64,000 nucleotides of DNA from Patescibacteria group bacterium. Lineage in GTDB: Bacteria > Patescibacteriota > Doudnabacteria > UBA920. The position numbers and the translations under genes are program-made. The stretch spans positions 64,136 to 128,135 of the forward strand of contig WARV01000008.1 of the NCBI GenBank assembly GCA_013387205.1, read 5' to 3'. Below the pieces are notes generated by a model. The model was not told the DNA's origin. It ran no database searches and saw only the letters and a program-made list of their open reading frames with translations. Each line of letters begins with the position of its first letter. Position 1 is the stretch's first letter. Below are positions 31,871 through 59,185 of the stretch, piece by piece.

Positions 31871-31910
31871 ATCCGAATTACCCGAATCTTATCCAAATGA
31901 CCCGAAAACG
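31871..31910. repeat. Partial copy (left arm) of palindromic element family R2
   Basis: atccgaattacccgaatcttatccaaatgacccgaaaa matches the left arms at 40018 and 59100. Confidence 0.5.
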
Positions 31911-31965
31911 ATATTCGTAGTTCGTAGAGATTCGTTGATTCGTTCCATTTGCAGATTCGATTTTT

Positions 31966-32478
31966 ATGTTTAAGTTTGACCTGCACCACAATGAAAACCT
32001 GGTCGAAATGTTCAGGAAATCGGAAATGGTTTTAGCCAAGCCGGTCCTTGCGATTTTTGTTTTTATTTATATTCCCTGGTATTTCTTAATCAAGTATGAA
32101 CTTGTCGCTGATTACAAAAACATCCTTTTGGCTTGGACAACTCTTGTTCTTATTTTTGGGATTCATAGGTACTTATTATGGCTTTTGAATGTCTGCCTGC
32201 TTACCAGCCAGAGATTTGTGATGGTGGAGTACAAAAGCTTGTTTAAAAAGAAAGTGGTGGAAATTCATCTTGATAAAATCAGTAACATCAGCTATTCGAC
32301 ATCAGGTATTTTTTCCTCCTTGTTCGGTTTTGGCGATTTGCATGTCCAATTTTCGGGATCGTCGGAAATGATAATTGCCAAAAACATCAGCCAGCCATCT
32401 AAAGTTAAAGATAAAATTTGGAAAGCGGCAAAGGCAGCAACACATAAAAGCGTTCACTCAGTTGTTGCGATGGAATAA
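31966..32478 (+). CDS. Membrane protein with a bacterial PH domain (YdbT/DUF304-like)
   Basis: Two N-terminal TM helices followed by a soluble domain of about 90 aa; bPH_2-like pattern. Confidence 0.45.
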   Translation: MFKFDLHHNENLVEMFRKSEMVLAKPVLAIFVFIYIPWYFLIKYELVADYKNILLAWTTLVLIFGIHRYLLWLLNVCLLTSQRFVMVEYKSLFKKKVVEIHLDKISNISYSTSGIFSSLFGFGDLHVQFSGSSEMIIAKNISQPSKVKDKIWKAAKAATHKSVHSVVAME

Positions 32479-32515
32479 TTTTTGTCAATTATGTCAATTT
32501 TGTTCAATTCTAATT

Positions 32516-32887
32516 ATGGATCGCAAAATCCTTCTATCATCAAAGATAACTTTAGCAATACTGGCTGTATTTTTAGGATTCCTGTGCAATATTAAATACA
32601 AGCAATGGGCCAGCCAAAAGGCTATTGAAAAAGAAAAGACAAGCCTGGCCCTGCAGGCAGACCAGTTGGATAAAAAGAACCAGGAACTCGACCAGTCGCT
32701 TTCTTACCTGAATTCCCAAAGTTTCAAGGAAAGGGTAGCCAGGCAGCAGCTGAACTTAAAAAAAGACGGTGAGACAGTTTATAATTTTTCAAATCCGCAG
32801 GTTAGCCCTGGCGATGACGGTGCTAACCAAAAATCAGGCAAAAGCAATATCCAAAAATGGTGGGAATATTTTTACGACAATAAATAA
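32516..32887 (+). CDS. Septum-formation initiator family protein (FtsB/DivIC-like)
   Basis: Single N-terminal TM helix and a coiled coil (KTSLALQADQLDKKNQELDQSLSYLNSQSFKERVARQQLNL). Trimmed to the ATG at 32516. Confidence 0.5.
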   Translation: MDRKILLSSKITLAILAVFLGFLCNIKYKQWASQKAIEKEKTSLALQADQLDKKNQELDQSLSYLNSQSFKERVARQQLNLKKDGETVYNFSNPQVSPGDDGANQKSGKSNIQKWWEYFYDNK

Positions 32888-32900
32888 TTAAATACAAGAT

Positions 32901-33791
32901 ATGAAAAAACTTAAAAAGTGGCACATAGTATCAATAAGTTTAGTTGTAGTAATTTTGGCAGGGCTAACAGGTTTAGGCTTTTGGCTGTCCAAGGGCAAAA
33001 TTACGCAAACAAAGGCAAAAATTTATAAAGTACTTCCTTTCCCAATGGCACTGGTCAATAACCATCCTTTGACCATGAAGAATTTTTTGAGCCGGTTAGA
33101 TTCAGCTAAGGTATTTTACGATAAATCAGGCACGAAATACGACGAAACCGGACTGGAAGAAGCCATTGCAAACAAAATGGTTGATGAGGAAAAAATTAAC
33201 ATTTTGGCGAAAACCAATAACGTCAGCGTAAAAGACAGCGAAATTAACGACGAATATTCTGTCAGAGCCAAGTCTGCGGACTTGGAAGGCAAGAAGAACT
33301 TCGAAGATCTTTTGAAAAGCTATGGCCTAAATACCGCGTCGTTCAAAAGCGATGTCATAAGGCCTGACCTTTTGGCGACAAATTTAGTGGTGTGGTTTAA
33401 CGCCCAAAAAAACCTTAACTCCGACCAGTATAAGCTGGCTGACGACTTGATGAAAAAGATCGAAAGCGGCCAGTCAATGGAAGACATTGCTTCAAAATTC
33501 TCCCAGGAAGACGCTACAAAAATGACTCAGGGCGATTTGGGTTTTATTGAAATTAACGGTGTCCTGCCTGAACTTAAGGAAACATTGGATTCCATGTCTG
33601 CCGGCCAGTCAAAAATTGCCGCCAGCCGCTACGGCATCCATATTTTAAAGCTTGAAGAGAAAGACAATAATGGCGAAAATAACGGCGCCAGGATGCATAT
33701 TAAGCAGATTTTCATCAAACCGAATGATTTTGAAAAGTGGTTTAAAGACGAAACGCAAAATTTCAAAGTTAAAAAAATAGTTAAAATTTAG
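32901..33791 (+). CDS. Parvulin-type peptidyl-prolyl cis-trans isomerase (PrsA/SurA-like), membrane-anchored
   Basis: N-terminal TM helix; C-terminal rotamase domain GDLGFI ... GQS ... YGIHILKLEE. Confidence 0.6.
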   Translation: MKKLKKWHIVSISLVVVILAGLTGLGFWLSKGKITQTKAKIYKVLPFPMALVNNHPLTMKNFLSRLDSAKVFYDKSGTKYDETGLEEAIANKMVDEEKINILAKTNNVSVKDSEINDEYSVRAKSADLEGKKNFEDLLKSYGLNTASFKSDVIRPDLLATNLVVWFNAQKNLNSDQYKLADDLMKKIESGQSMEDIASKFSQEDATKMTQGDLGFIEINGVLPELKETLDSMSAGQSKIAASRYGIHILKLEEKDNNGENNGARMHIKQIFIKPNDFEKWFKDETQNFKVKKIVKI

Positions 33792-33871
33792 AAATTAAAA
33801 AAGAAGTAGTCTTGAAAAGCTGCTTTTAAGGCGATATTCCAGAATTTTGAGACTACTTCAAGCAAACAAAT

Positions 33872-35767
33872 ATGGAAAATGAGGTCGTAAAATACATAAA
33901 AGAGGCCCGACAACATGGCTTAAGCGATCTTGAAATAAAACAAAATTTGCTCAATGTTGGCTGGGAAGCCGATGCAGTTGAGGATAGTTTTGCGTATGTC
34001 AAAGCTTCAGAAAATAAGCCTTTGGCAAACCGCGACGAAGATATTAAAACTCACGCGTCTCAGACCCCCGACCAATATTATAAAAGAACCCTTGGCGATA
34101 CCGGTGGTGTTGCGCATGGTATAAATTCTGTTAAGCCTGCTCAGTTACCACACGAAGAACCGCAAATGGCTGCAAAACCTGCTTCTGTCCAAACCAACCT
34201 CCCGCAGCATGCACTAAATATTTCCAAAAAACAATCAATCTTCAAAAATCCAAAATTTTGGACTAGCATTATTTTACTGGCTATGATTGGAGTCGGCGGC
34301 TATGCGTATTACACTTACGCCTATAACTCTCCTGAAAAAATTTGGAATAAGTTCGTAAAATCTGAAAAAAGCAGTATTTTTGAAAGCAATTTCACTTACG
34401 CATATGCGGATAAAGGTAAAATTTCCAGCGATAACAAAGATCTGGCTTCCTTAAAAGGCATAAAACTCTCGTTTGCAGGGGATTCATACGTAAATTCCAC
34501 AGACCCGAATAACACGCAGTCCAGTTCAAAGTTCCAATATTCGTTCAGCAGCGGAAATACCAGCATCAGCACCGGAGCGGAATATATCCTGCTGAATAAA
34601 AATTTTTACCTGAATGTTGGCGATAACCCTTTTTTGTCCAAAATCTTGGATTCTGTAAGCAAGGGTAAAAAATATGACTGGATAAAAATCGATTTAGGCG
34701 CGATTCAGGATGAAATGGCAAAAAGCAATAAAGACGGCCTGGATAAGTTTAATGAAATATTCAATCCAAGTTTTAAGCAGGAATTAGCAAATATTTGGGA
34801 AAACGCGACATTGGTTAAAATAGATAAATATCTCGGCAGGGAAAAAGTCGGCGACGTTAACACCCTTCATTTTAAAAATTCCCTGGACAAGCAGGCTTTA
34901 AAAGACGCGATAAGGCAATACGCGGATAAGATAATAAATGCTTTAAACGAAAAAGAAACAAATCCTGAAAATAAACTAAAAGATGAGGATAGAAACGCTC
35001 TCTATTCGGCCATAAACAGTTTAATTGATAAAACCAACATTTCGGAATTTGAAACATGGATTGGCATAAAAGATTTTAAGTTATACAAAGTCCATCTGGT
35101 AACCAGTGCTCCTTCTGTGGCGTCTATTGCCAATCTGGCGTCTACGGAATATTCAGACATGGCAAATCTGCCCACGCAAAACAGCGACACCAAAAAAATA
35201 TCGGACATCAGGCAGTTATCGGCAGCCTTGGAAAGCTACCATAAAGATAAGGGCGGTTACCCGGAAGCGAACAACGGCGTTCCCACGGATATTTCACCGT
35301 TTTATGTTGCAGTCGTCCCTGTTGCCCCAAGCGCTACGGGCAATTGCACGGATTTTTATAATACATACTGGTATACGCCAAAAGGCGAAAAGAAAACAGT
35401 GAACGGCAAAACATTATACAGTTCGTTCGAATATACTTTTTGCATTGGCACAGACCAGGGAATGTACAAAGCGGGAATTGGCAAGCTGACACCATCAGGA
35501 ATTGAAATCCCCATAACCTGTCCCGGCACGCCGGAGCAATGCAGTAAGCCAAGCCAAAACCAAGATAAAACCAGGGATGAAAAAATCAATGAATTTATTT
35601 CAAAAATTGATTTTGCGGGCGAAATAAGAATTGACATGGTTTATTCCAATTACGGAAAGGCCAAGCAGCTGGAAGCGCCAAAAGAATATTTTGATGTAGT
35701 GAATGAATTAAAAAATACCCAATCCCAATCAAATTTTAAAAAAAGTTTGACTGGCAACATAAGATAA
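33872..35767 (+). CDS. Hypothetical membrane-anchored protein with a pseudopilin-like (GspG-type) segment
   Basis: TM helix around residue 140. DIRQLSAALESYHKDKGGYPEAN matches the D..R..DL..L..AL..Y....G.YP pattern. Confidence 0.4.
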   Translation: MENEVVKYIKEARQHGLSDLEIKQNLLNVGWEADAVEDSFAYVKASENKPLANRDEDIKTHASQTPDQYYKRTLGDTGGVAHGINSVKPAQLPHEEPQMAAKPASVQTNLPQHALNISKKQSIFKNPKFWTSIILLAMIGVGGYAYYTYAYNSPEKIWNKFVKSEKSSIFESNFTYAYADKGKISSDNKDLASLKGIKLSFAGDSYVNSTDPNNTQSSSKFQYSFSSGNTSISTGAEYILLNKNFYLNVGDNPFLSKILDSVSKGKKYDWIKIDLGAIQDEMAKSNKDGLDKFNEIFNPSFKQELANIWENATLVKIDKYLGREKVGDVNTLHFKNSLDKQALKDAIRQYADKIINALNEKETNPENKLKDEDRNALYSAINSLIDKTNISEFETWIGIKDFKLYKVHLVTSAPSVASIANLASTEYSDMANLPTQNSDTKKISDIRQLSAALESYHKDKGGYPEANNGVPTDISPFYVAVVPVAPSATGNCTDFYNTYWYTPKGEKKTVNGKTLYSSFEYTFCIGTDQGMYKAGIGKLTPSGIEIPITCPGTPEQCSKPSQNQDKTRDEKINEFISKIDFAGEIRIDMVYSNYGKAKQLEAPKEYFDVVNELKNTQSQSNFKKSLTGNIR

Positions 35768-35789
35768 CACTAAGAGTATAATTAAAAAG

Positions 35790-35816
35790 ATCCGGCCGGT
35801 TGCCGGTCTTTTTAAT
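35790..35816 (+). terminator. Rho-independent terminator
   Basis: gatccggccggttgccggtcttttt. Confidence 0.55.
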
Positions 35817-35858
35817 TTCACCAATTTAAGATATAATAAGTACAAGTATTTTTTTATC

Positions 35859-36980
35859 ATGCCCAAAATTTTATACCGCACTTGGATTGAAATTGACAAG
35901 AAAGCGGTCAGTCACAATTTTTTAACCTTCAAAAAACTTATTAACACAAAAACCAAGCTTTTAGGCGTGGTTAAATCCAATGCGTACGGCCATGAACTAA
36001 TGGGTTTTTCACGCGTCTTAAGCGATTTGGGCATTGACTGGCTGGGTGTGGATTCCATAACCGAAGCGCATACGCTCAGGCGCCATAAAATAAATAACCG
36101 GATTTTGGTTTTGGGATATACGCTCCCGGCAAATTTTGATTTGGCAGGCAACCACGGCATTGCTTTGACTATTTCTGATTTTATAAATTTAGGAATGGCC
36201 AAAAAACATAAAGGCGATATTACCATCCACTTGAAAATTGATACTGGAATGCACAGGCAGGGATTTTTGCTTAAAGACCTGCCAAAAGCATTATCGATCA
36301 TTAAAAATTCCAAGAACATAAAGCTGCAGGGGGTTTATACGCATTTTGCGGCAGCCAAAGCCCCGGATTGGTCAGGCCAAACCCAAAAACAGATTGAGCA
36401 ATTTGAAAAAGCAGTTGCTTTGGCAAAAAAAATCCAGCCAAACATTATTGCCCATGCTTCGGCATCTGCCGGAACGTTAAATTATGCTTTCGCGCACTTT
36501 GACATGGTCAGGGTTGGTGCCGGGCTTTATGGCTTGTGGCCATCTTTAGAAACTAAGCTCAGCAAGGAAAAACAATTGCAGCTAAAACCGGTTTTAACCT
36601 GGAAGACAATTATCAGCGAAGTAAAAACCCTTGAAAAAGGCGAAAAAATCGGGTATGATTTTACGGAAGAACTAAAAAGAAAAACCCGGGTTGCCATATT
36701 GCCGATTGGCTATTGGCACGGATACTGGAGGGCGCTTTCCGGCAAGGCTTGTGTTCTTGCTGGGGGTAAAAGAGCCAAAGTTTTAGGCCGTATCAGCATG
36801 GACATGACGGCAATTGACATAACTGATGCAAGCCAAGCCAAAGTCGGGGACGAAGTAGTGTTAATTGGAAGGCAGGGCAAGGAAAATATCACGGCTGATG
36901 AATTGGCAGAAATCGCAGGAACAACAAATTATGAAATAATCACCAGGATTAATCCATTAATAAAAAAGTTCTTTATATAA
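35859..36980 (+). CDS. alr: Alanine racemase
   Basis: GVVKSNAYGHE (PLP-lysine motif); 373 aa. Confidence 0.85.
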   Translation: MPKILYRTWIEIDKKAVSHNFLTFKKLINTKTKLLGVVKSNAYGHELMGFSRVLSDLGIDWLGVDSITEAHTLRRHKINNRILVLGYTLPANFDLAGNHGIALTISDFINLGMAKKHKGDITIHLKIDTGMHRQGFLLKDLPKALSIIKNSKNIKLQGVYTHFAAAKAPDWSGQTQKQIEQFEKAVALAKKIQPNIIAHASASAGTLNYAFAHFDMVRVGAGLYGLWPSLETKLSKEKQLQLKPVLTWKTIISEVKTLEKGEKIGYDFTEELKRKTRVAILPIGYWHGYWRALSGKACVLAGGKRAKVLGRISMDMTAIDITDASQAKVGDEVVLIGRQGKENITADELAEIAGTTNYEIITRINPLIKKFFI

Positions 36981-36986
36981 CATTAC

Positions 36987-37062
36987 GCCGGCTTAGCTCA
37001 TCTGGTAGAGCAGCGGTATCGTAAACCGCAGGTGGTCGGTTCAAGTCCGACAGCCGGCTCCA
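36987..37062 (+). tRNA. tRNA-Thr (anticodon CGU)
   Basis: Manual cloverleaf: acceptor GCCGGCT/AGCCGGC, D arm GCTC/GAGC, anticodon loop ATCGTAA, T loop TTCAAGT, CCA end. Confidence 0.8.
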
Positions 37063-37076
37063 TTTTATCAGAAATT

Positions 37077-37685
37077 ATGAAAATTCCTAAAGGCGCAAAA
37101 CGGGTTTTTAAGGGAATTATTTTTGACGTTTACCAATGGCAGCAAAAGATGTTTGATGGAAGCCTTGAAACGTTTGAGGCAATAAAAAGGCAAAAGACTG
37201 TTGTTATAATCCCTACATTCAAAAATAAAATAGTTCTCATTAAACAAAAGCAGCCAAATACAGGCTGGTTTTATAGTTTTCCAAGCGGCAGGATGGATAA
37301 GCAAGACAAAAACCCCAAAACGGCCGCTTTAAGGGAATTAAAAGAAGAGACAGGACTTACCCCAAAGAAGGTCGTCTTATGGAAAACCATAAATAATGGC
37401 GGGAAAACCGACCATGATGTATACATATTTTTAGCTAAAGACTGCCGTAAAACGCACGAGCAACAACTGGATGCGGGTGAAAAAGTCAAAGTATACAACT
37501 TCGCTTTTGACGAATTCCTAAAATTGTCAGATAGCGAATATTTTATCGAAAAATCAATTTTAATTGATCTATTAAAGGCAAGATTAAGCAAAAAGTATTG
37601 CGAGATGCTCAAAAAAGCGTTTTTTGGCAATTTGTCAAGCCTGCCAAAAACCGCCAGTCTTGCCAAGCCCGGCATTTTTTGTTAA
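37077..37685 (+). CDS. NUDIX hydrolase (ADP-ribose pyrophosphatase-like)
   Basis: Nudix box GRMDKQDKNPKTAALRELKEETG. Trimmed from the ORF-track start, which overlapped the tRNA. Confidence 0.6.
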   Translation: MKIPKGAKRVFKGIIFDVYQWQQKMFDGSLETFEAIKRQKTVVIIPTFKNKIVLIKQKQPNTGWFYSFPSGRMDKQDKNPKTAALRELKEETGLTPKKVVLWKTINNGGKTDHDVYIFLAKDCRKTHEQQLDAGEKVKVYNFAFDEFLKLSDSEYFIEKSILIDLLKARLSKKYCEMLKKAFFGNLSSLPKTASLAKPGIFC

Positions 37686-37702
37686 ACTAAGTCCGTTATA
37701 TT

Positions 37703-37972: not shown

Positions 37973-37993
37973 TTAAATTTACAAAGATTTTTC

Positions 37994-38869
37994 ATGCTTG
38001 CCATACCACCATTAGCTGCTGAAACAATATTTTATATAGGTTCTTTCCCGGTAACCAACTCTTACATAAATTCTACCATTGTCGTTATCGGCTTTATTAT
38101 CTTCGCTTTCATAATAAACGCCGCAATAAAAAAATATTATCCGCTGAAAAAAGCCCCCAAAGGCATACTTAACTTTTTTGAGGGTGTTTTGGAATTTTTG
38201 CTGGGTTATATCGATAACGTTACAAAAGACCGCAAAAAAACCATCAGGTTTTTGCCGTTAGTCGGTTCCCTGTTCTTGTTTATTTTGGTTTCAAACTGGA
38301 TGGGCTTGCTGCCTGGAATCGGATCCATTGGCATAACGGAAATGGTTAACGGCCACGCAGAATTTATCCCGATTTTCCGTCCCGCTAATACCGATTTGAA
38401 CATGACCCTTTCTATGGCGGTTTTAGCCGTTACAGCTTCCCATTTCTTAGGCATCGTCACCATTGGGTTCTTTAAATACGCAAACAAATTCATTAAATTC
38501 GGGGATTTATACCAGGCTATAAAAAGCATGAAGCCTGTGAATATTTTAACCGCGGTTATTGAATTTTTCGTAGGCTTAATTGAAATTGTTTCCGAAGTGG
38601 CAAAAATGGTTTCGCTTTCTTTGAGGCTTTTGGGCAATATTTTCGCAGGAGAAGTCCTTTTGACCGTGTTGGCCGGCTTAATCCCATTTTTAATTCCTCT
38701 TCCGTTTATGGCTTTGGAATTATTGGTTGGCTTTATCCAGGCAGTCGTATTTTCCATGTTGGCGCTGGTTTACTTGACTATGGCTACTGCAGAAACCCAT
38801 GGCCACGCTGAAACGGGACATGACGAATCTTTTGCCGAAGCCGAAGAAAACCAAACACCGGCAGTTTAA
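37994..38869 (+). CDS. atpB: F0F1 ATP synthase subunit a
   Basis: LSLRLLGNIFAGEVL (the essential Arg motif). Confidence 0.85.
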   Translation: MLAIPPLAAETIFYIGSFPVTNSYINSTIVVIGFIIFAFIINAAIKKYYPLKKAPKGILNFFEGVLEFLLGYIDNVTKDRKKTIRFLPLVGSLFLFILVSNWMGLLPGIGSIGITEMVNGHAEFIPIFRPANTDLNMTLSMAVLAVTASHFLGIVTIGFFKYANKFIKFGDLYQAIKSMKPVNILTAVIEFFVGLIEIVSEVAKMVSLSLRLLGNIFAGEVLLTVLAGLIPFLIPLPFMALELLVGFIQAVVFSMLALVYLTMATAETHGHAETGHDESFAEAEENQTPAV

Positions 38870-39020
38870 AAATTATTCAATTGCGAATTTCGAATTGCGA
38901 ATTTCCGCCAGCTGGCGAATCGTGATCCGTGATACGTAATTGACAAATTAATACCCGCAAGGAGACGTTAAACTAAAATCAATTACGATAATAGTCTACT
39001 GAGCGGGAAAGAAAGGGTGA

Positions 39021-39242
<222 letters not shown>

Positions 39243-39295
39243 AATTAGTTTTAGACTCTTGGGAGAAGATTTCTCCTTTGAGCTTATAACTAATT

Positions 39296-39442
39296 CCCAA
39301 ATTTTTAATTGACCTAATTAACCTAATTGTTCCTAATTATTCTAAATAAATCCCAATTTCTAATTACACAAATATTAGACATTGGATCATTAGTCATTAT
39401 TTAGGTTAATTAGAATAATTAGAGCAATTAGAATAATTCTTT
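39296..39442. repeat. Palindromic intergenic element, family R1, copy 3
   Basis: tgacctaattaacctaattgttcctaattattctaaataaatcccaat ... atttaggttaattagaataattagagcaattagaataatt. Confidence 0.6.
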
Positions 39443-40018
39443 ATGATAATCGATATCCATCAAATTTCTCAACTCTTGATCCCAATTGCCCACGCGGCAG
39501 AAGAAGCCGCAAACACGGAATCTTCCGGAGGCGCCTTGGCGACTTTGGGCGTTAACTGGAAATTATTTATTGCCCAACTGGTTAACTTCGGCATAATTTT
39601 GGCCGTCCTTTGGAAATTTGTCTTCATTCCAGTGGCAAAACAGCTTACTGAAAGAACAGAAAAAATTGAAAAATCGTTAAGCGATGCCGACAGGATAACT
39701 AAAGAAAAGGATGAATTCACCAAATGGCGCGAAGCCGAAATTTCCAAGACTAAAGCCCAAGCGGCCACGATAGTCGCAGCAGCGGAAAGCGAGGCTAATA
39801 AAGCCAAGCAGCAGATAGCCGAACAGACCAAGCAGGAACAGGATAAAATTATCAGGCAGGCCAAAGATTTGATTGAATCGGAAAAGCAGAAAGCAGTCAG
39901 GGATATTAAGTCTGAGGTGGCGGAAATGGTTACTGCGGCTACAGAAAAGATTTTAAGGCAAAAATTGGACAATAAGACAGATAAGGAATTGATTAAGGAA
40001 TCATTAAAAAGTATATAA
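39443..40018 (+). CDS. atpF: F0F1 ATP synthase subunit b
   Basis: N-terminal TM helix and a long charged coiled coil. Confidence 0.75.
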   Translation: MIIDIHQISQLLIPIAHAAEEAANTESSGGALATLGVNWKLFIAQLVNFGIILAVLWKFVFIPVAKQLTERTEKIEKSLSDADRITKEKDEFTKWREAEISKTKAQAATIVAAAESEANKAKQQIAEQTKQEQDKIIRQAKDLIESEKQKAVRDIKSEVAEMVTAATEKILRQKLDNKTDKELIKESLKSI

Positions 40019-40105
40019 TCCGAATTACCCGAATTCTATCCAAATGCCCCGAAAAGGGAAAAGCATTTGGGGTATTCGGATAACTATTCGGAGCATTAGG
40101 ATTAT
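40018..40105. repeat. Palindromic element family R2, full copy, ending 4 nt before the atpH ATG and containing its AGGA ribosome-binding site
   Basis: atccgaattacccgaattctatccaaatgccccgaaaaggg ... tttggggtattcggataactattcggagcattaggattat; the two halves are reverse complements. Confidence 0.6.
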
Positions 40106-40109
40106 GTAA

Positions 40110-40502
40110 ATGAAAATCTCTCCCCAACAATACGCTCAAAGCCTTTTTGACGCCATAAGCGAAACTAACCCCAAGGACCACGATTTGATCATGGACAATT
40201 TTGTAAAGATTTTGGCAAAGAACGGGGACTTGGATAAATATCCGGAAATCGAAAAGGAATTTAGGTCGTTGCAGCTGAAAGATAAAGGGATTAAAGAAGC
40301 AGAAATAACCTTAGCAAGGCCGCATGAAGTATCGCACGAAATAGTACAGGAACTGAATAAGATAATCGGCAACAAAGTTGAAGTTAAAACTAAGATTGAT
40401 GAAAACCTGATAGGCGGAGTGGTGGTAAGGGTAGACGACCAGCTTATAGACGCCAGCGTAAAAAAACAGCTTGAAAATTTAAACCAATCACTTAAATCAT
40501 AA
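40110..40502 (+). CDS. atpH: F0F1 ATP synthase subunit delta (short form)
   Basis: C-terminus IGGVVVRVDDQLIDASVKKQLENL (OSCP signature). 130 aa, versus about 177 aa typically. Confidence 0.7.
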   Translation: MKISPQQYAQSLFDAISETNPKDHDLIMDNFVKILAKNGDLDKYPEIEKEFRSLQLKDKGIKEAEITLARPHEVSHEIVQELNKIIGNKVEVKTKIDENLIGGVVVRVDDQLIDASVKKQLENLNQSLKS

Positions 40503-40524
40503 AACTTTAATCTAAATTAATTTT

Positions 40525-42027
40525 ATGGCAAACTCTGACACAATCGTAAAACAACTCAAAGACAAGATCGCCGGTTTTTCACCTGACGTGAAAATTGAAA
40601 AAGTCGGCACGGTTTTGGAAGTCGGCGATGGCGTGGCACGCATTAGCGGACTTAAAGAAGCCGCCAGCATGGAAATGCTTGATTTCGGGCATGGCACTTT
40701 TGGCGTGGCTTTGAACCTTGAAGAAAACATGGTCGGTAGCATTGTTTTGGGTGATTATCACCAAATCAAAGTTGGCGACATAGTTAAGCCTACAGGAAGA
40801 ATCTTGTCCGTGCCGGTAGGTGAAAATTTGATTGGCAGAACCGTTGATGCATTGGGCAGGCCAAAAGACGGCAAAGGCGAGATTAAGGCAGATGGGTTTT
40901 ATCCGGTAGAAAAAATCGCTCCCGGCGTTATTACCAGGCAAAAAGTGAAACAACCGGTACAGACCGGTATTAAAACTATTGACGCCTTAATTCCAGTCGG
41001 CCGCGGACAGCGCGAACTTATTATTGGCGACCGTCAAACCGGAAAGACCGCAATTGCTATTGACGCAATTATCAACCAAAAAGGCCAGGACATGATTTGT
41101 GTTTACGTGGCTGTAGGACAAAAAGAAAGCAAAGTGGCAAGAATTGTGTCTGAGCTGGAAAAATACGGAGCTATGGAATATACCATTGTGGTTTCCGCTT
41201 CGTCTTCTGAACCGGCAGCGCTTTCTTATATTGCCCCGTATTCCGGATGCGCTATTGGCGAATATTTCATGGATAAAGGAAAAGATGTTTTGGTCATTTA
41301 CGACGATTTATCCAAGCAGGCTGTGGCTTACCGCGAAATCTCTTTGCTGCTCCGCAGGCCTCCGGGAAGAGAAGCTTATCCGGGAGACGTGTTTTATCTC
41401 CATTCCAGGTTGTTGGAGCGCGCTGCCAAGCTGAATCCGGATTTCGGCGGCGGATCTTTGACTGCCTTGCCGATTATAGAAACCCAGGCAGGGGACATTT
41501 CTGCCTACATTCCCACCAACGTAATTTCCATTACCGACGGGCAAATTTTCTTGGAATCGGATTTGTTCTACAAAGGCATTAGACCGGCTTTAAACGTTGG
41601 ACTGTCCGTGTCTCGCGTGGGGTCCGACGCCCAGACCAAAGCCATGAAAAAAGTGGCAGGCAAGTTAAAGCTGGCCATGGCGCAATTCAGGGAATTGGAA
41701 GCTTTTGCTTCTTTCGGTTCAGACTTGGACGAAGCCACCAAGAAACAATTGGAATTAGGACGCAGGCTGACTGAAGTATTAAAACAGCCGCAATTCCAGC
41801 CTCTGCCATTGGAAAGAGAAGTTACCATTCTTTACGCAGTCAACAACGGATACTTTAACGAAATTCCGGTTGAAAAGGTGCGCGATGCGGAAGAAAAATT
41901 ATATTCATTCATGGAAGCCAATGGTAAAGATGTTTTGGAAAGCATTAAAGCAACCAAAGAATTGAATGACGACACAGAGTCTAAGTTAAAAGAATTGATA
42001 ACCCAGTTTGTGCAATCTGTAAAATAA
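40525..42027 (+). CDS. atpA: F0F1 ATP synthase subunit alpha
   Basis: GDRQTGKT P-loop; 500 aa. Confidence 0.95.
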
Positions 42028-42972: not shown

Positions 42973-43227
42973 ATGGAACAAGAATTTTTTGAAAATAACA
43001 ACGGCCATAACAAAGACGAACTTATTACTAAGATTGCAATACTTTTAGATCCGGATGGCGGCGAAATTATTGCCAACCAAATAATTTCAGGAAAAGAAAT
43101 CGAACCAGAAACGGAAGAATACAAGAAAACAGAAGATATTATAAAATCACTTCTTCATTTGTCTATCCCGGAAATTGAACAGTGGTGCAAGGATAATGAA
43201 ATGGATATATCTAACAATGCTAATTAA
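42973..43227 (+). CDS. Hypothetical acidic small protein inserted between atpG and atpD
   Basis: 84-aa ORF that fits the intergenic gap tightly; no family recognised. Confidence 0.35.
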   Translation: MEQEFFENNNGHNKDELITKIAILLDPDGGEIIANQIISGKEIEPETEEYKKTEDIIKSLLHLSIPEIEQWCKDNEMDISNNAN

Positions 43228-47209: not shown

Positions 47210-48077
47210 ATATTTTCCTCCTAAAACTTTTCCTAAATTAATGACGGATTTGTAAAGAAAAATAAATAACTAGCCATTCAGATATTTTTGTAATCTTTAA
47301 AAACTTTAGAGTATGGCTTAACGACAAGGAAAAATAACGGCTTGGATATTATCTATCTCTTTTGATTAAATGTAGCGGACACTGTTCGAATCTAAAAAAT
47401 CGATAAAAAACATTTACGATTATAAATTTATAACTGTAGTTCTCCTAAGAGGTTTTGTGGTTTTTTTAGTCCTAACTTGCTTAGGGATATATCAAAAACC
47501 ACCAATATTTATTGGTGGTTTTTGATGGCGGCGAGCCAAAAACCACGCTCGAACTTTGGAGTTGGTCTGTCAGCATCTTGCCGCGCTTACCGAATGAAAC
47601 ACCCAAATTAAACAGCTATTTGAGCAAGGAATACGCGAGCCAACGCTGGCGGTAATTCTCTAAAAAAGTTATAATATAGCCATAAACCATTAACAAAACT
47701 CTTATGGACACGAAACAAAAAGATAACTTTACGGACGTATTAGACCATTTATCCAGCAACGATTCATCAGCGAATAGCGATAGCAGCGCTGGGTCAGGCC
47801 AAGTTGTTGGCGCGGACGGCCAAGTTGTAACTTTAGGTAATAAAGACGGACAAAATACCTCTATGGATAATTAAGCTGAATCTACTTGAACTTACAGTTA
47901 CTACCAAGAGTCTAAACACTTAAATATAATCGGCGAAAAATCAAAATTAGGAGCGCGGCAGTAGGCAACAAATACGCTGTAGGAAATAAAGGCGGCGGTA
48001 GAAAGTCAGCTTTTCAAGAGCAGGCTGACGCTGCCTTTTTTGCTGACCTCTGGAACGGCCGGTTAAAGAAGGAACGT

Positions 48078-49362: not shown

Positions 49363-49391
49363 ACTTTGGCAAAAAGTAATTTAATAGGAAA

Positions 49392-52757: not shown

Positions 52758-52786
52758 ACTATGCGTGTTGGTATTTTCATAAGATT

Positions 52787-53586: not shown

Positions 53587-54105
53587 ATGCCAATTAGAAA
53601 TCCTGACCAAAGAGTCGGAGTGTTCGTGGATGTGCAGAATTTATATTATTCTGCACGCAATATTTACAACGCCAGGGTAAAATTTAATGAAGTTTTAAAC
53701 GAGGCCGTGGCAGGGCGCAAACTTATCCGCGCTATTGCCTATGTCGTGGAAGCCAACATGCCGGAAGAGCACACGTTTTTTGAGGCTTTGGAAAAGGCTG
53801 GCTTTGAAGTTAAAAGAAAAGAACTGCAAACCTTTGCCGGCGGCCACCAAAAAGGCGATTGGGACGTAGGGATAGCTATGGACATCGTAAAGTTAATGAA
53901 TAAACTGGATGTCGTGGTGTTGTGTAGCGGCGATGGCGATTATGTTCCACTTTTGGAATACATGCAAATGTCCGGGCAATTTACGGAAACCTTAGCATTT
54001 GGCAAATCGTGCAGCGGAAAAATTAAAGAGCTGACCGATTATTTCATTGACCTTGATGAAAACCCCAGAAAATTCTTAATGCCAATTCGTAACGGAAGGA
54101 AATAA
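53587..54105 (+). CDS. NYN-domain (LabA/DUF88-like) putative RNase
   Basis: VGVFVDVQNLYYSAR ... VVLCSGDGDYVPLL. Confidence 0.65.
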   Translation: MPIRNPDQRVGVFVDVQNLYYSARNIYNARVKFNEVLNEAVAGRKLIRAIAYVVEANMPEEHTFFEALEKAGFEVKRKELQTFAGGHQKGDWDVGIAMDIVKLMNKLDVVVLCSGDGDYVPLLEYMQMSGQFTETLAFGKSCSGKIKELTDYFIDLDENPRKFLMPIRNGRK

Positions 54106-54136
54106 ACCGACCCTAAAATTTACATGTTTGTTAGCC

Positions 54137-54179
54137 CTCTTCTCCTAGCCAGGAGAAGAGATGGAGATGAGGTCGAAAC
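54137..54179. repeat. Left bracket of the DUF559 cassette: 10-bp-stem hairpin ctcttctcct-agcc-aggagaagag plus inverted repeat gatgaggtcgaaac
   Basis: Read directly from the sequence. The partner on the right is at 54530-54577. Confidence 0.6.
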
Positions 54180-54530
54180 ATGACAACAGACCCAAATTTT
54201 GTAAAACTATCCAGGCAGTTAAGAAAAAACCAGACACCTTGGGAAAAGAAATTATGGATGCACTTAAAGGGCAGTAAGTTTTATGGTTATAAGTTTAAAA
54301 GGCAGACAGTAATCGGCTCATTTATTTATGACTTTAGCTGCTTTGAAAAGAAGCTTCTAATTGAGCTAGATGGTTCCCAACATACAAATGATGAGATAAA
54401 GCATAAAGACCAGGCAAAAGAAGACTTTGCCAGAAAGCTAGGCTATCAGATACTAAGATTTTACAATTACGATATTGCTAATAACCTCGAAGGTGTATTA
54501 GAAAAAATAGAATTAACAATCAACCGCTAG
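54180..54530 (+). CDS. DUF559 endonuclease-domain protein (Vsr/PD-(D/E)xK-like)
   Basis: LR.NQT.WEKKLW.HL ... KFKRQ ... IYDF ... LLIELDG.QH ... ILRFYNYDI, the DUF559 pattern; 116 aa. Confidence 0.65.
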   Translation: MTTDPNFVKLSRQLRKNQTPWEKKLWMHLKGSKFYGYKFKRQTVIGSFIYDFSCFEKKLLIELDGSQHTNDEIKHKDQAKEDFARKLGYQILRFYNYDIANNLEGVLEKIELTINR

Positions 54531-54577
54531 TTCGACCTCATCCGGCCTGCGGCCACCTTCTCCTTGCCAGGAGAAGA
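54530..54577. repeat. Right bracket: inverted repeat gttcgacctcatc, a GC hairpin, and hairpin cttctcct-tgcc-aggagaag (which provides the ribosome-binding site for the PIN gene)
   Basis: Reverse complement of the left bracket (13/14 and 8/10). Confidence 0.6.
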
Positions 54578-54587
54578 GGAAAAATAC

Positions 54588-55037
54588 ATGAAAATTGTTT
54601 TAGACACAAATGTCCTGATTAACGGATTTAAAGATGATTACTCCTTTGAAAAACGCATCATAGACGAGGTTTTGGAAGGAAAGTTACAGGCCTATGCCAA
54701 CAGGCAAACATTGCGTGAAAATAGGCTAATTTCCTCGCAATTGATAGATAACGACGAATACAGGCACCAATTAGACGATTTATTTAGCAAAATCCATTGG
54801 GTTGTTAACCGTAGGCAAATTCATGTAGTTGACGATCCTGAAGATAACAAAATATTGGAAAGTGCTGTTGAAGCCGAAGCGGATTATTTAATTACCAGCG
54901 ATAACGACTTGCTAAAACTAAAAGCATATCAAGACATAGAAATAGTAACCCCATCCCAGTTTTGGTCCAAATACAAAGACGAAGGCAATGACTTATGGAA
55001 GCAATGGACAAACTTCATTAGAAATGACAAAAATTAA
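54588..55037 (+). CDS. PIN-domain nuclease (VapC-like toxin family)
   Basis: MKIVLDTNVLI ... and a later ITSDNDLL acidic motif. The start was trimmed to the ATG 8 nt after the AGGAGAAGAGG site. Confidence 0.6.
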   Translation: MKIVLDTNVLINGFKDDYSFEKRIIDEVLEGKLQAYANRQTLRENRLISSQLIDNDEYRHQLDDLFSKIHWVVNRRQIHVVDDPEDNKILESAVEAEADYLITSDNDLLKLKAYQDIEIVTPSQFWSKYKDEGNDLWKQWTNFIRNDKN

Positions 55038-55069
55038 AAAAATGACAAAATTGACAAAAATAATCAAAA

Positions 55070-55457
55070 ATGGAAAAAGACTTTAAAAATTGGTTACATA
55101 AAAAAGAAAATATACACAACTGCAAATCCTAGGCCTTATTATCACGAACGGGAAATCTGGTATTGTTCTTTTGGTATAAATGTCGGTTTTGAGCAAGACG
55201 GCAAAGGAGAAGATTGTTTCAGGCCCGTTTTAATATTTAGAAAATTCAATAATGAAATTTTTTGGGCAGCACCGTTAACATCGGCGCTCAAGAATTCACC
55301 ATACTATCAAATTATAAAGTTTAGCGATAGGCAAAGTTCAGTAATTTTATCACAAATTCGTTTGATTGACGCAAAAAGATTGGGCTATAAAATTGGCACT
55401 TTGGATAAAAACCAATTTTCTGAAACAATAAAAAACCTCAAAGCATTACTGCCTTGA
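55070..55457 (+). pseudogene. MazF/PemK-family mRNA-interferase toxin gene with a +1 frameshift (or sequencing error) in an A-run near the 5' end
   Basis: ATG frame gives MEKDFKNWLHKKENIHNCKS followed by TAG. The +1 frame continues as PRPYYHEREIWYCSFGINVGFEQDGK ... VLIF ... AAPLTSA ... ILSQIRLIDAKRLGYKIGTL, which aligns with MazF. Confidence 0.55.
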
Positions 55458-55530
55458 GCTTTGCAATTTTAACCCCCGCCGAAGCGGGGTCGGGCCGAAG
55501 CCATTTAGTAACTATATTGTACACCCTTTT

Positions 55531-58500
55531 ATGACGTTTGTCAAGAATAGCGACTTACTTGAAAATTTAAACAAAGAACAAAAAGAGGCTGTTGTTCATA
55601 AAGATGGGCCGCTTTTGATTGTGGCTGGGGCAGGCACGGGTAAAACCACAGTAATCACCAGAAAAATCGCGCACTTAATTGAACAAGGCCAGGCCAAGCC
55701 TGATGAAATTTTAGCTTTGACTTTTACGGAAAAAGCTGCCGGGGAAATGCAGGAACGCGTGGATATTTTATTGCCTTTGGGCTATCACGACTTGTGGATT
55801 TCTACTTTTCATAGCTTTTGCCAAAGAATTTTGGAGCAGCATGGCTTGGATATTGGCCTTCCGGGCGATTTTAAAATACTAACCGACGTCCAACAATGGG
55901 TAATGGTGCATAATAATTTGAATAAGTTTAATCTTGATTATTATAGGCCCCTGGGCAACCCCAAAAAATTCATTTCTGCGCTTTTAAAACATTTTTCCAA
56001 ATGCAAAGACGAGCTGATTACTCCTGGAGAATATTTAAATCATGCTGAAAGCCTGAGGCTTGGGACTGATCAACCTTCGAAAAAGAAAAGTAAAAATGTA
56101 GGGGCGGATCTCATCCGCCCTAAAATCGGGAAGGTAAGATCTTCCCCTACAACTACTGCATTAATCGAACAACCTGTTGCAACTGAAGACATGGATGAAA
56201 CTGAAATCTTCAGGCTGGAAGAAGTAGCCAATGCTTACCACACTTACCAAAAAATGCTTTTGGACGGCAATTTCCTGGATTTTGCGGATTTGATAAATTA
56301 TACTTTGGAACTGTTTAAAAAGCGCCCTAAGATCCTCGAGTATTACCAAAACAAGTTCAAATATATTTTGGTGGATGAATTCCAGGATACCAATTACGCC
56401 CAGTACCAGCTGGTAAAAATGCTGTCTGGCAACAATGGAAATTTAACCGTGGTTGGCGATGACGACCAGTCCATATATAAGTTCCGCGGCGCCAGCGTCT
56501 CCAATATCTTAAAATTCCAAGAAGATTACCCCAAACTAAAACAAATTACCTTGGTGGAAAATTACCGGAGCAGCCAGGAAATTTTGGATTTGGCTTATAA
56601 TTTTATCCAATTAAACAATCCGGACAGGCTGGAAGTTAAATTAAAAATCGACAAGAGGTTAAAATCTTCAAATAAAACGGATGCGGTAATTCAAGTTTTA
56701 GAAGGCAAGGATTTAAGCGACGAACTGAATTCTGTCGCAAAAAAAATCTTAGAATTGAAGGAAAACAATAAGGATTCGACTTGGAACGATTTTGCCGTTT
56801 TAATCCGCAGCAACTCCGCGGCAGACGAATTATTACCCATACTTTCTTCATACAACATCCCGCATACCTTTGTTGCCAATACCGGGCTTTACAAAAAGCC
56901 GCTAATCGCCAGCTTAATAGCTTATATCAAGCTTTTGGATAATTTCCACGATTCATTCAGCCTTTACAGGGTGCTATGTTTTGCTGATTTTGGGATTAAG
57001 CCTGATGAAATTTCCACAATGCTGGAAAACTCAGCCAAAAAAACCTTGTCTTTGTATGAAATTTTGCAGGTAGCGGATTTAGACCCATCCTTGAGTAGCG
57101 AGACTAAAGCAAGCATAAAAAAGTTTGTTTCTTTCCTGCATAAGCATGCCGATTTGGCGCAAAGCAAATCCGCAACCGAATGCTTTGTCGACATTGTCTC
57201 AGACCTGCATTTGCAAAAAAAACTCCAGGCGCAGAATTTGGAAAACGCGGAAAACCGCGAACTGCTCGAACAATTTTACAAAAAAATAGAAAATTTCACA
57301 CAGGAAAGCGCAGACAAAAGCATTCATTATTTTATCCATCTGCTGGATTTGGAAATGGAGGCAGGGGACGAAGGACAGATAAAATTCGACCCGAACCTGG
57401 GCCCGGAAAGCCTTAAGGTTTTAACTGTGCACGCGGCCAAAGGATTGGAATTTTCCCATGTATTTATTATCAATATGGTTGACCAAAGGTTTCCGACCAG
57501 AGCCAGGAAGGATTCCATAGAAATTCCGACAAGTTTGGTTAAAGACATTTTGCCGGAAGGGGACTTCCACTTACAGGAAGAGCGCAGGTTATTTTACGTT
57601 TCACTAACCCGCGCTAAAACGAATTTATATTTAAGCTGGGCCAAAGATTATGGCGGAAAAACCTTAAAAAAACCCTCGCAATTTTTAGTTGAAGCTAAGC
57701 TGGTGCCAAGCGAAAAAGTATCCGCCGCCACAGGAAAAGTCATTTTCACCAAACCCGCGCCGCAAAAGATAGTTTTCCAGCAGCTGCCAAACAGTTTTTC
57801 TTTTTCCAAAATCAAAGCATTTAAAAATTGCCCGCTTGAATATAAATATAGATATTATTTGAAATTCCCTACCAAGGGCAATCGGTATTTAAGCTTTGGA
57901 CAAACCATCCATTTAACCTTTGAACAATTTTTAAAGGATTATTTAAAAAGGCTGAATTCCAAGCAGCAGGATTTATTTGGAAATACGCCCGGCAAAATTG
58001 AAATTGGAAGCCGTGAATTTTTAGAGCAGCTTTACCATCAAAATTGGATTGACGAATGGTACCAAAGCAAATCGCAAAAAGAAATGTACAGGAAGAGAGG
58101 ATTAAAGATGCTCAGGACATTTTACGATTACGCTTCGCAAAATATTCCAGCGCCAAAATTCATTGAGCAGAGCTTTAATATGAAAATTGACAAGTATTTC
58201 TTTAACGGCAAAATCGACAGGGCAGACCTGCTCCAGGACGGCAGGATAATGATTTTGGACTATAAAACAAGCGAAAAAGTGCCAAAAAAAACAGACAAAG
58301 ACGACTTAGACCAACTGTATATTTACCAATGGGCGGCTCAGGAGCACCTGAATGAAAAGGTGGGCGGTTTGGCTTATTGGTATTTGGACGAAAATAAATT
58401 TGTCCAGGAAGAAGTGGCGCCTGAAGAAAAAATCGCAAAACTTAAAAACGATCTTTTAGAAACCATTGAAAAGATTATATACACAATAAAGTACGATTTA

Positions 58501-58560
58501 TTTAAACAAGAACACGATAAGCTGCACGACCATCATTGCGAATTTGAAAACCTAGAATAG
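55531..58560 (+). CDS. UvrD/PcrA-family helicase with a C-terminal PD-(D/E)xK (RecB/Cas4-like) nuclease domain
   Basis: AGAGTGKTTVIT Walker A; DEFQDTN; VENYRSS; C-terminus ILDYKTSEK ... QLYIYQWAA. Confidence 0.75.
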   Translation: MTFVKNSDLLENLNKEQKEAVVHKDGPLLIVAGAGTGKTTVITRKIAHLIEQGQAKPDEILALTFTEKAAGEMQERVDILLPLGYHDLWISTFHSFCQRILEQHGLDIGLPGDFKILTDVQQWVMVHNNLNKFNLDYYRPLGNPKKFISALLKHFSKCKDELITPGEYLNHAESLRLGTDQPSKKKSKNVGADLIRPKIGKVRSSPTTTALIEQPVATEDMDETEIFRLEEVANAYHTYQKMLLDGNFLDFADLINYTLELFKKRPKILEYYQNKFKYILVDEFQDTNYAQYQLVKMLSGNNGNLTVVGDDDQSIYKFRGASVSNILKFQEDYPKLKQITLVENYRSSQEILDLAYNFIQLNNPDRLEVKLKIDKRLKSSNKTDAVIQVLEGKDLSDELNSVAKKILELKENNKDSTWNDFAVLIRSNSAADELLPILSSYNIPHTFVANTGLYKKPLIASLIAYIKLLDNFHDSFSLYRVLCFADFGIKPDEISTMLENSAKKTLSLYEILQVADLDPSLSSETKASIKKFVSFLHKHADLAQSKSATECFVDIVSDLHLQKKLQAQNLENAENRELLEQFYKKIENFTQESADKSIHYFIHLLDLEMEAGDEGQIKFDPNLGPESLKVLTVHAAKGLEFSHVFIINMVDQRFPTRARKDSIEIPTSLVKDILPEGDFHLQEERRLFYVSLTRAKTNLYLSWAKDYGGKTLKKPSQFLVEAKLVPSEKVSAATGKVIFTKPAPQKIVFQQLPNSFSFSKIKAFKNCPLEYKYRYYLKFPTKGNRYLSFGQTIHLTFEQFLKDYLKRLNSKQQDLFGNTPGKIEIGSREFLEQLYHQNWIDEWYQSKSQKEMYRKRGLKMLRTFYDYASQNIPAPKFIEQSFNMKIDKYFFNGKIDRADLLQDGRIMILDYKTSEKVPKKTDKDDLDQLYIYQWAAQEHLNEKVGGLAYWYLDENKFVQEEVAPEEKIAKLKNDLLETIEKIIYTIKYDLFKQEHDKLHDHHCEFENLE

Positions 58561-58717
58561 CTCTCTACTAAATACTAATTCTTCTACTAAATACGAAATA
58601 ATACTAAAGATACTAAATCTAATATCAGTAATGATATCAATTAAGGTGGTTTTAAGGCTTTTAGTATATTTAGTACTTTTAGTATTTAGTAGAAGGTAGA
58701 AGTATGGTATAATAAAT

Positions 58718-59092
58718 ATGTTGAAATCTCCAAAACAACAAGTTGCTTACATAATTATCAGCACGCTCTTGGCGGGTTTTTCACTGGGATCAATAATCAA
58801 TTTTACCGATCCCTTTACTGCCAGCAAGATAACCCACGGTTTCTTTTATCTGAGTTTGTTCATTTTTAGTTTAGGAATTTTCACGACAATCGGCCTGCTA
58901 ATAAGGAAATGGTTTAACCCGGCCCTGTTCGTGATAAATTTAAACAATAGCTTCAGGCAGGCTCTGCTGATTTCACTTTTAATCATCGCATCCTTCTTAT
59001 TACTGGCAAACAAGCTGTTGTTTTGGTGGGTTGAGGCAAGCTTAGCGCTATTTTTGATATTTTTAGAGGCATTCTTAAATCTTAAAGTCTGA
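58718..59092 (+). CDS. Small 4-TM membrane protein, hypothetical
   Basis: 124-aa hydrophobic ORF. Confidence 0.35.
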   Translation: MLKSPKQQVAYIIISTLLAGFSLGSIINFTDPFTASKITHGFFYLSLFIFSLGIFTTIGLLIRKWFNPALFVINLNNSFRQALLISLLIIASFLLLANKLLFWWVEASLALFLIFLEAFLNLKV

Positions 59093-59099
59093 TAACATA

Positions 59100-59185
59100 A
59101 TCCGAATTATCCGAATCTTATCCAAATGACCCGAAAAGGGAACCGTTTGGGGCATTCGGATAGTAATTCGGGGCATTAGGATTAT
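59100..59185. repeat. Palindromic element family R2, full copy, ending 4 nt before the pheS ATG and containing its ribosome-binding site
   Basis: atccgaattatccgaatcttatccaaatgacccgaaaagggaaccgtttggggcattcggatagtaattcggggcattaggattat. Confidence 0.6.

Follow-up and report, generated by a model that had tools for sequence, protein, structure and literature searches.

What is a palindromic repeat doing immediately before the start codons of two unrelated genes, in bacteria whose genomes, of about 1 Mb, have almost no spare DNA? The question is raised by a stretch of 64,000 nucleotides (positions 64,136 to 128,135 of contig WARV01000008.1, assembly GCA_013387205.1; hereafter the window) from a member of the Doudnabacteria. 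It belongs to the candidate phyla radiation (CPR, or Patescibacteria), where, to our knowledge, gene regulation is essentially unknown. The repeat, R2, is present in three to four copies in the window, and two of them stand before atpH and pheS. An earlier reading of the window, made from its letters alone (hereafter the sequence-only reading), had seen there either a translational control structure shared by the two genes or a MITE (a miniature transposable element with inverted repeats) that donates a ribosome-binding site. With moderate confidence, we take R2 to be an intercistronic repeat akin to MITEs and to the repetitive extragenic palindromes (REP) of other bacteria, transcribed together with its neighbours, in which the arm that faces the start codon would double as the translation initiation region of the next gene, its AGGA motif acting as a weak Shine-Dalgarno (SD) sequence. 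We find no support for a hairpin dedicated to switching translation.

Two palindromes between stop and start codons

Copy 1, at 40015..40105 (features are on the forward strand unless otherwise stated), is an imperfect palindrome of 91 nt in the spacer between atpF and atpH, with four 8-nt units in each arm and a central loop at about 40056-40066. Upstream lies atpF (39443-40018), encoding F0 subunit B, the TAA stop codon of which (40016..40018) is contained in the left terminal ATAATCC of the repeat; downstream lies atpH (40110..40502), encoding the F1 delta subunit of 130 amino acids (aa). Copy 2, an imperfect palindrome of 89 nt at 59097..59185, separates an open reading frame (ORF) of 124 aa (58718-59092) from pheS (59190..60179; TIGR00468, E = 1.6e-81). 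Here as elsewhere gene names were assigned by NCBIfam, and the boundaries of the copies, with the terminal ATA and TAT counted in, come from an alignment of 17 elements. Both copies end exactly 4 nt before the ATG of the gene that follows, at 40110 and 59190, and both carry, 8 nt before this ATG, an AGGA which is the sole SD-like 4-mer there and hence a candidate SD (40098..40101, in the terminal unit ATTAGGATTAT of copy 1; 59178..59181, in the terminal unit of copy 2). On the place of the two copies, their distance to the ATG and the AGGA, as on the presence of a spurious antisense ORF over each copy, the sequence-only reading was right. Its portrait of the repeat needs to be redrawn on three counts: the length is 89-91 nt, not 86; the two copies are 85.7% identical (78/91), not about 90%; and the arms are not perfect, each copy being 69-73% identical to its own reverse complement, with mismatches that recur across genomes.

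Is atpH correctly delimited? Among 120 listed homologues, which place the window in or near Candidatus Doudnabacteria, nearly all are 128-136 aa long and most exactly 130 aa, so that a delta subunit of this length is the norm of the clade. The start codon at 40110 is thereby confirmed, and truncation of atpH by insertion of the element is ruled out. We note in passing that the 130-aa product aligns to positions 53-178 of a 179-position profile, the N-terminal 50 residues or so being missing, and that the end of copy 1 (40104-40112, ATGTAAATG) makes a minimal start-stop, ATG TAA, right before the atpH ATG, a feature absent from copy 2.

The end that faces the start codon

To place the two copies within a family, we scanned a genome collection with a degenerate terminal pattern, and metagenomes with a second, more specific one that matched about 100 contigs. 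This gave 36 distinct full elements of 84-126 nt, about 17 of which share the plan of the window copies. They occupy very short same-strand intergenic spacers; therefore the left end abuts or contains the upstream stop codon (at -3 to +5 nt in most cases), and the right end comes close to the start codon, mostly 4-7 nt before it, whichever terminal variant it carries. In 11 of the 35 termini adjacent to a gene end the stop codon is the TAA inside ATAATCC (stop at -3). The ATG remains outside the repeat, except in four cases where it overlaps the last base. Since these spacers, stripped of the element, would be about 10 nt long, a distance of 4 nt to the ATG is, taken alone, no sign of control. 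In the search for further copies that the sequence-only reading had called for, copies elsewhere do mostly adjoin start codons, and their distance to them is largely a matter of geometry.

The composition of the ends is another matter. We classed the termini, after removal of duplicates, according to what lies outside them, and compared the classes with a Fisher test. Ends of the form ATTAGGATTA, which carry AGGA on the outward-reading strand, face 27 gene starts and a single gene end, while ends of the form ATTCGGATTA, with CGGA instead (ATTCGGATTAT), face 18 starts and 35 gene ends. This polarity (odds ratio 52, p = 1.6e-8) held separately in the genome and in the metagenome scans; with elements chosen solely for having their left end next to a stop codon, AGGA was still found on 13 of about 22 right ends. 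The spacing between AGGA and the start codon is 6-10 nt in 16 of the 27 cases. Furthermore, the right ends of a 126-nt subfamily are of both the AGGA and the CGGA type, which shows that the difference is not a fixed design distinguishing left from right ends.

Does the lineage make use of such motifs at all? SD-like 4-mers precede 13 genes out of 60 in the window and 15 out of 67 in relatives (about 22%, for a background of about 15%); among them are full AGGAGG motifs and an AAGGA recurrent before atpE. To judge by these sequences, SD use is a minority but real habit in the lineage. The polarity of the ends supports the view that the start-facing end would be selected to supply a weak SD. It also lends statistical weight, family-wide, to the suggestion of the sequence-only reading that the repeat donates a ribosome-binding site, a function that we keep as putative. 

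A further argument comes from pairs of orthologous copies, which we compared with identity at 4-fold degenerate sites of genes (loci other than the window are numbered with the prefix L). Before rplT (L123 / L185), the start-side arm and the loop are identical at 62/62 positions, for 58% at 4-fold sites; before ssb (L082 / L146), the start-side arm shows about 93% identity, for 46%; before thrS (L116 / L143), the whole element is 93% identical, for 54%. In three of four orthologous pairs the start-side arm is the better kept of the two. L123 lacks the outer left arm and L003 has a shortened one; in orthologous copies before rplT and tsf, the left arm is missing or replaced while the right arm persists. 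With the start-side arm kept and the far arm lost, constraint appears to bear on the nucleotides that immediately precede the start codon, instead of on the stem; the hairpin itself is not supported as a selected feature.

Several facts weigh against a role of the start-facing end in initiation. Eighteen start-facing ends retain CGGA, and their modal distance to the start is likewise 5-7 nt: spacing is therefore independent of AGGA. About one-third of the AGGA ends are badly spaced, at 2-3 nt (rpiB, ruvX) or at 15-19 nt (tsf, rpsJ, tuf; the 126-nt subfamily). Most genes of the lineage start without an SD, none is conserved before atpH in relatives, and none of the 227 loci holds a 16S rRNA 3' end, where the anti-SD would lie; the anti-SD has been reported missing in part of the Parcubacteria (PMC9297842). 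High identity of orthologous copies could also result from the recent spread of an active repeat, and the rplT pair derives from one sample. Finally, strand-specific insertion tied to the direction of replication could yield polarity, nearly all window genes being on one strand, and we saw no target-site duplication, no clean empty site and, in the loci read, no transposase partner, no systematic search for one having been made.

Anatomy of the element

About four 8-nt units (ATCCGAAT/CCCCGAAT) follow one another in each arm of R2, with a spacing of about 10 nt. In the left arm they read ATCCGAAT, A(C/T)CCGAAT, ATCCAAAT and NCCCGAAA, with the inverted forms in the right arm; two units (ATCCGAAT / NCCCGAAT) make a super-unit of about 21 nt. 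The spacers between units, of 1-4 nt, are not complementary between the two arms. Within the window the density of the unit motif is about four times higher outside coding DNA than in it, and a seed 17-mer occurs 11 times, for 0.5 expected by chance. The end next to the upstream stop codon is ATAATCCGAAT, and that next to the downstream start codon is, in about 60% of cases, ATTAGGATTAT; with 10 of 11 positions complementary, these are the terminal inverted repeats of a short, non-coding element, as in MITEs. What makes the difference between them is that the start-side terminal unit is usually ATTAGGAT instead of ATTCGGAT, a C-to-A transversion confined to the terminal unit, the inner units retaining ATTCGG.

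Two other elements of the window belong here. The sequence-only reading had seen a half-copy at 31871-31910. Its left arm (31868-31909) is real, 90-95% identical to other left arms; yet it is part of a whole, chimeric element, copy 3 (31868..31960), which continues with a right arm of ATTCGT type, devoid of AGGA, and stops about 5 nt before the ATG (31966) of an ORF for a bPH_2-domain protein. A fourth, degenerate relative at 18296..18410, with a GC-rich hairpin nested inside it, is not beside a start codon, the next ATG being about 130 nt off; nested GC hairpins that resemble it were also seen in L040, L054, L015 and L009.

Units of this kind are found in unexpected settings as well. On the reverse strand of L184 (about 590-700) an R2-type element lies in frame within an ATP-sulfurylase-like ORF, and in the same locus the 21-nt super-unit TATAATCCGAATGCCCCGAAT translates as YNPNAPN. 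Long direct tandem arrays of the 21-nt unit were found in Falkowbacteria-type contigs (L075, L173 and L184 1240-1850). Three candidate identities were set aside. TIGR-Tas guide arrays seem unlikely, the window copies being single dispersed palindromes and not arrays, with no Tas gene noticed nearby. A resemblance of TTATCCAAA to a DnaA box sits badly with elements that are dispersed instead of clustered, and CsrA-type GGA sites would call for a motif context (ANGGA) that R2 does not match.

How the repeat may serve its neighbours

Which genes follow the family members? Besides atpH and pheS, we find tsf, tuf, rpsG, rpsJ, rpsI, rplR, rpmJ, rpmA, rplT, rplI, rpoA, nusG, groES, ssb, gap, metK, rpiB and ruvX. 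Conserved operons contain many of the copies (before rpsG, tsf, tuf, rpsJ, rpsI, rplR, rpmJ, rpmA, rplT, rpoA, ssb and atpH), and since so many of the downstream genes are internal to classical operons, the elements are presumably co-transcribed with their neighbours.

On this basis one may propose the following scenario. R2 would be transcribed as part of an operon or of a leader. The C-to-A change would place a weak AGGA SD at about 8 nt from the start codon, and a gene severed from its old upstream context could still initiate translation via this AGGA, the start-side arm being thereby turned into its translation initiation region. In the full-length transcript AGGA would be partly paired with the left terminal TCC, and a ribosome that finishes translation at the stop codon, where the hairpin has its base, might open the terminal helix, with some translational coupling as a consequence. 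When the stop region is held single-stranded, predicted accessibility from SD to AUG rises from 0.25 to 0.57 in copy 1, the rise in copy 2 being from 0.31 to 0.38; this constraint model fits modest translational coupling and is no proof of it. The stable inner hairpin may, in addition, influence the processing or the stability of the messenger. As for the copies themselves, they would spread or turn over along some route that generates no target-site duplication.

A bolder and rather doubtful extension would have the start-side arm (ATTYGGGG-C-ATTCGGAT-n4-ATTCGGGG-C-ATTAGGAT-TAT) be a portable 5' untranslated region and translation-initiation module across the Patescibacteria. A repeat would install it ahead of strongly expressed genes (those for ribosomal proteins, EF-Tu/Ts, SSB, GroES and ATP synthase), and a specific factor, able to recognize the repeated AUU(C/A)GG motifs, would read it. 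If true, this would mean that organisms largely without SD initiation share a cis-regulatory code.

A selfish repeat?

R2 might do nothing for its hosts. It would then be a purely selfish miniature repeat that settles in what little non-coding sequence there is and, by geometry alone, comes up against stop and start codons. Its ends would differ intrinsically (CCGAAT on the left, TAGGAT on the right), and its orientation would follow the replication strand, as with hairpins mobilized by IS200/IS605 or RAYT enzymes, and would track gene direction only indirectly. We hold this to be somewhat unlikely, although it is the alternative that survives best. It accounts well for the fact that both ends abut genes with either terminal variant. 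It also fits the disposition of nearly all window genes on one strand, and the unrelated palindromes that occupy the atpF-atpH spacer of relatives. The L184 copy, in frame inside a coding gene, recalls the selfish palindromic elements of Rickettsia, and the tandem arrays of L075, L173 and L184 would be no surprise; nor would the lack of covariation and of strand-specific folding, discussed below. Compared by eye, the dinucleotides beside 17 full elements show no correlation: the two sides do not duplicate each other, nor do they prolong the inverted repeat. This absence of a target-site duplication is what elements moving as single-stranded DNA with Y1-type enzymes would leave.

Intrinsically different ends are hard to reconcile, however, with the coexistence of AGGA and CGGA right ends in the 126-nt subfamily, and selfish spread with a start-side arm that is far better conserved than 4-fold sites and beats the other arm in three of four pairs. 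The copy that follows a T-box leader, described below, is conserved along with this leader. No Y1 transposase or RAYT partner turned up, no systematic search having been made, and many unit families of one architecture would require many mobilizing enzymes in a genome of about 1 Mb.

A control hairpin?

The first of the two proposals of the sequence-only reading was that the stem of R2 is a dedicated control device, hiding the SD and start codon of atpH and pheS and opening on a signal (temperature, a protein, or upstream translation). Folding goes some way in this direction. Copy 1 is predicted to fold at -38.3 kcal/mol (z = -4.8 against shuffles), within a range of -35 to -38 kcal/mol, and copy 2 has z = -4.2; both are far more stable in prediction than shuffled sequences. 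For the full hairpin, prediction has the AGGA largely engaged in pairs, with a probability of being unpaired of 0.10-0.25 (0.25 in copy 1), in agreement with the sequestration that had been suggested. A stop codon at the base of the stem is the geometry that coupling requires, and a ribosome modelled on it raises accessibility, as we have seen.

Pairing kept by selection, the hallmark of a cis-regulatory RNA that sequesters an SD, is nevertheless not what we observe. In the alignment of 17 elements the covariation score is 0.042, for a shuffled mean of 0.062, and 499/500 shuffles score at least as high: there are no compensatory changes. Pairing involves 86% of the cells of the alignment, no better than the 86.8% of column shuffles. 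Several mismatches are conserved, among them the G.A mismatch of the terminal helix, present in 17/17 elements. Folding shows no bias between sense and antisense strands across 15 palindromes. The left arm is dispensable in the orthologous copies before rplT and tsf, where the right arm stays. Unrelated genes follow the elements (atpH, pheS, ribosomal-protein genes, ssb, metK), other palindromes stand at the atpF-atpH site in relatives, and an SD-like motif precedes only about 22% of the genes of the lineage. In Rfam, the regions of the two copies (38800-40200 and 58500-59300) had no family match at E <= 1, and the whole window yielded only tRNAs at gathering score. All in all, control by the hairpin looks quite unlikely, and we return to R2 as a repeat whose start-side arm would matter for initiation.

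A portable promoter or a protein-binding array?

Could R2 bring a promoter instead? Two forms of this idea may be considered: the left (T/C)ATAAT would be a -10 box, with a stabilizing hairpin at the 5' end of the transcript and a free AGGA, or the right arm, with TTCGGA-N16-TAGGAT, would drive a leaderless or short-leader messenger. The left end reads TATAAT in about 65% of the copies, CATAAT in about 24%; at position 2 of the -10-like TAGGAT, 7 nt before both window ATGs, the essential A is a product of the C-to-A change; and many downstream genes head classical operons (rpsJ, groES, metK, pheS). Yet scans for sigma-70 consensus promoters and for terminators made no sense-strand call on either window copy. 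There is no conserved -35 box or TG extension, and TAGGAT fits only four of six positions. As for the T of TATAAT, it has a counterpart at the opposite end, an A following ATTAT, which makes it look like a piece of the inverted terminus. Many copies are internal to operons (atpH, rpsG, tsf, rplT), and the distance of CGGA ends from the start codon is no different.

A further case is that of thrS. In L116 (7717-8032), and on the reverse strand of L143, thrS comes after a 126-nt family member, which itself comes after a T-box-like leader and its terminator. The T-box match (44.5 bits, E = 1.4e-8) is under the Rfam gathering score; from one locus to the other, conservation exceeds 90% for the leader and for the element alike, and the short linkers beside the element are identical. 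A promoter placed there, between the terminator of the T-box and thrS, would bypass the riboswitch. R2 as a portable promoter is improbable.

Still less credible is a DNA-level array, in which the 8-nt units, set about 10 bp apart, would be binding sites for a nucleoid or regulatory protein, or phased A-tracts that bend the DNA, the palindrome being incidental: units that are conserved between non-complementary spacers, a period of one helical turn (about 10 nt), purely direct tandem arrays (L075, L173, L184) and the want of a strand-specific folding signal would suit it, whereas a strong polarity with respect to gene direction and a change restricted to the terminal unit are hard to explain in this way, no candidate binding protein was identified, and other unit families of the same genome have periods of 7-10 nt with quite different sequences.

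Precedents in other bacteria

The nearest functional precedent for R2 is found in Neisseria. There the REP2 (CREN) elements, like similar inverted-repeat sequences of Borrelia, are dispersed, contain internal stem-loops, lie directly upstream of ORFs and bring a ribosome-binding site (PMC3184786). R2 shares this position, with a ribosome-binding role that we consider putative. Differences abound: REP2 carries a promoter and the ATG, lacks terminal inverted repeats and is confined to one genus, while R2 is a near-palindrome of 8-nt units, without detectable promoter, which usually leaves the start codon outside, occurs in many CPR lineages and has no sequence similarity to REP2.

In terms of lifestyle the nearest precedents are ERIC, Correia and REP/REPIN. 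The ERIC/IRU and Correia (CREE/NEMIS) elements are, like R2, intergenic, MITE-like imperfect palindromes (about 100-150 nt); they are transcribed with flanking genes and have orientation-dependent effects on their neighbours (PMC3184786). With Correia elements a TA target is duplicated, and IHF sites and promoters are present, in contrast to R2, which has no target-site duplication and arms made of tandem 8-nt units. Neither ERIC nor Correia shares with R2 the systematic AGGA at the start-facing end, the phylum or any sequence similarity. REP, BIME and REPIN sequences (PMC3116915, PMC3733652, PMC2817692) are many-copy extragenic palindromes found, as is R2, between co-transcribed genes, without target duplication; their hairpins act on mRNA stability and they form mosaic clusters with units in alternating orientation. 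REPs are GC-rich hairpins of 20-40 nt with a GTAG/CGTC tag, and R2, of about 90 nt, AT-rich, modular, beginning with ATAATCC, ending with GGATTAT and devoid of the tag, is not one of them. Rickettsia palindromic elements, also palindromes of reduced genomes, can sit in frame in protein genes (PMC3184786), which the R2-type match of L184 brings to mind; the window copies and most of their relatives are intergenic, with no coding role seen.

Similar in build, by analogy only, are the foldback (FB) elements of eukaryotes, which like R2 consist of two inverted arrays of short sub-repeats; they are kilobase-scale, without homology to R2, and imply no mechanism for it. We know of no RAYT associated with R2. 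In summary of these comparisons, R2 is without the defining features of its precedents, be it target duplication, the GTAG/CGTC tag, a promoter or sequence similarity, and it shows two peculiarities: its arms are arrays of 8-nt units, and its terminal unit changes according to whether a start codon lies beyond it.

Distribution and significance

Among the genome-scan matches listed, R2-type elements occur in metagenome-assembled genomes (MAGs) labelled Doudnabacteria, Falkowbacteria, Saccharibacteria, Paceibacterota and Parcubacteria. In viral contigs the 10 matches were all chance coding matches (NPNDPN-type peptides) with only two units. A search of the literature on palindromic, intergenic or hairpin repeats of CPR or Patescibacteria yielded no description of the family, which is present in many Patescibacteria genomes and apparently not previously described.

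Because it sits in operons for ribosomal proteins, ATP synthase and tRNA synthetases, the repeat offers a testable handle on how expression is set inside CPR operons. It has practical consequences too. Short-read contigs often start or stop inside repeats (L001, which equals window 40082-41182 and begins in copy 1, as well as L044, L024, L088, L160 and L166), and the family therefore fragments CPR assemblies. Annotation of CPR MAGs is affected by spurious antisense ORFs, stop codons supplied by the element and elements in frame. Even if R2 were only selfish DNA, it would still be a new and widely distributed MITE/REP-like family in a poorly studied branch of the bacteria.

Other palindromes of the window

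R2 is far from alone. Almost every longer same-strand spacer of the window is occupied by a palindrome of short units, in families based on CTAAT, ACTAAT, ACTAAAT, TAAAAT, AATTTCG or CCGAAT, and R2 together with the other unit-built palindromes makes up about 2-3% of the window. The atp operon alone has three such families, in the atpB-atpE, atpE-atpF and atpF-atpH spacers. What is found at the last of these sites in related bacteria? The closest relatives are about 67% identical in atpH, among the 120 homologues listed, and in three relatives the atpF-atpH spacer holds palindromes of three other families and no R2. R2 as such is therefore not needed for atpH. The same three relatives carry R2-type elements at other loci (L046, L069 and L051).

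Further unit-built palindromes of the window lie at 9167-9288, 10395-10530, 12123-12264, 20830-20932, 24054-24179, 38874-38955, 39313-39442 and 58565-58700, with CTAAT/ATTAG, ACTAAT, TAAAAT, AATTTCG and ACTAAAT units; their right arms also stop a few nucleotides before start codons, without SD-like motifs. A GC-richer family (GTCATTGCGAG...CTCGCAATGAC, with an inner GGATCCCTTAA...TTAAGGGATTCC hairpin) is found in the window at 3341-3648 and in atp-operon spacers of three relatives (L104 9960-10368 and 13638-13771; L106 8371-8514 and 11307-11426; L108 7786-7912, 9183-9334 and 9893-10003). Two non-coding stretches of the window, 31575-31860 (about 290 nt) and 47210-48077 (868 nt), have strong predicted structure and no Rfam match at gathering score; they may hold divergent structured RNAs. 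Lastly, small additional ORFs occur between atp genes, at 42973-43227 in the window, 8116-8373 in L106 and 10394-10798 in L108.

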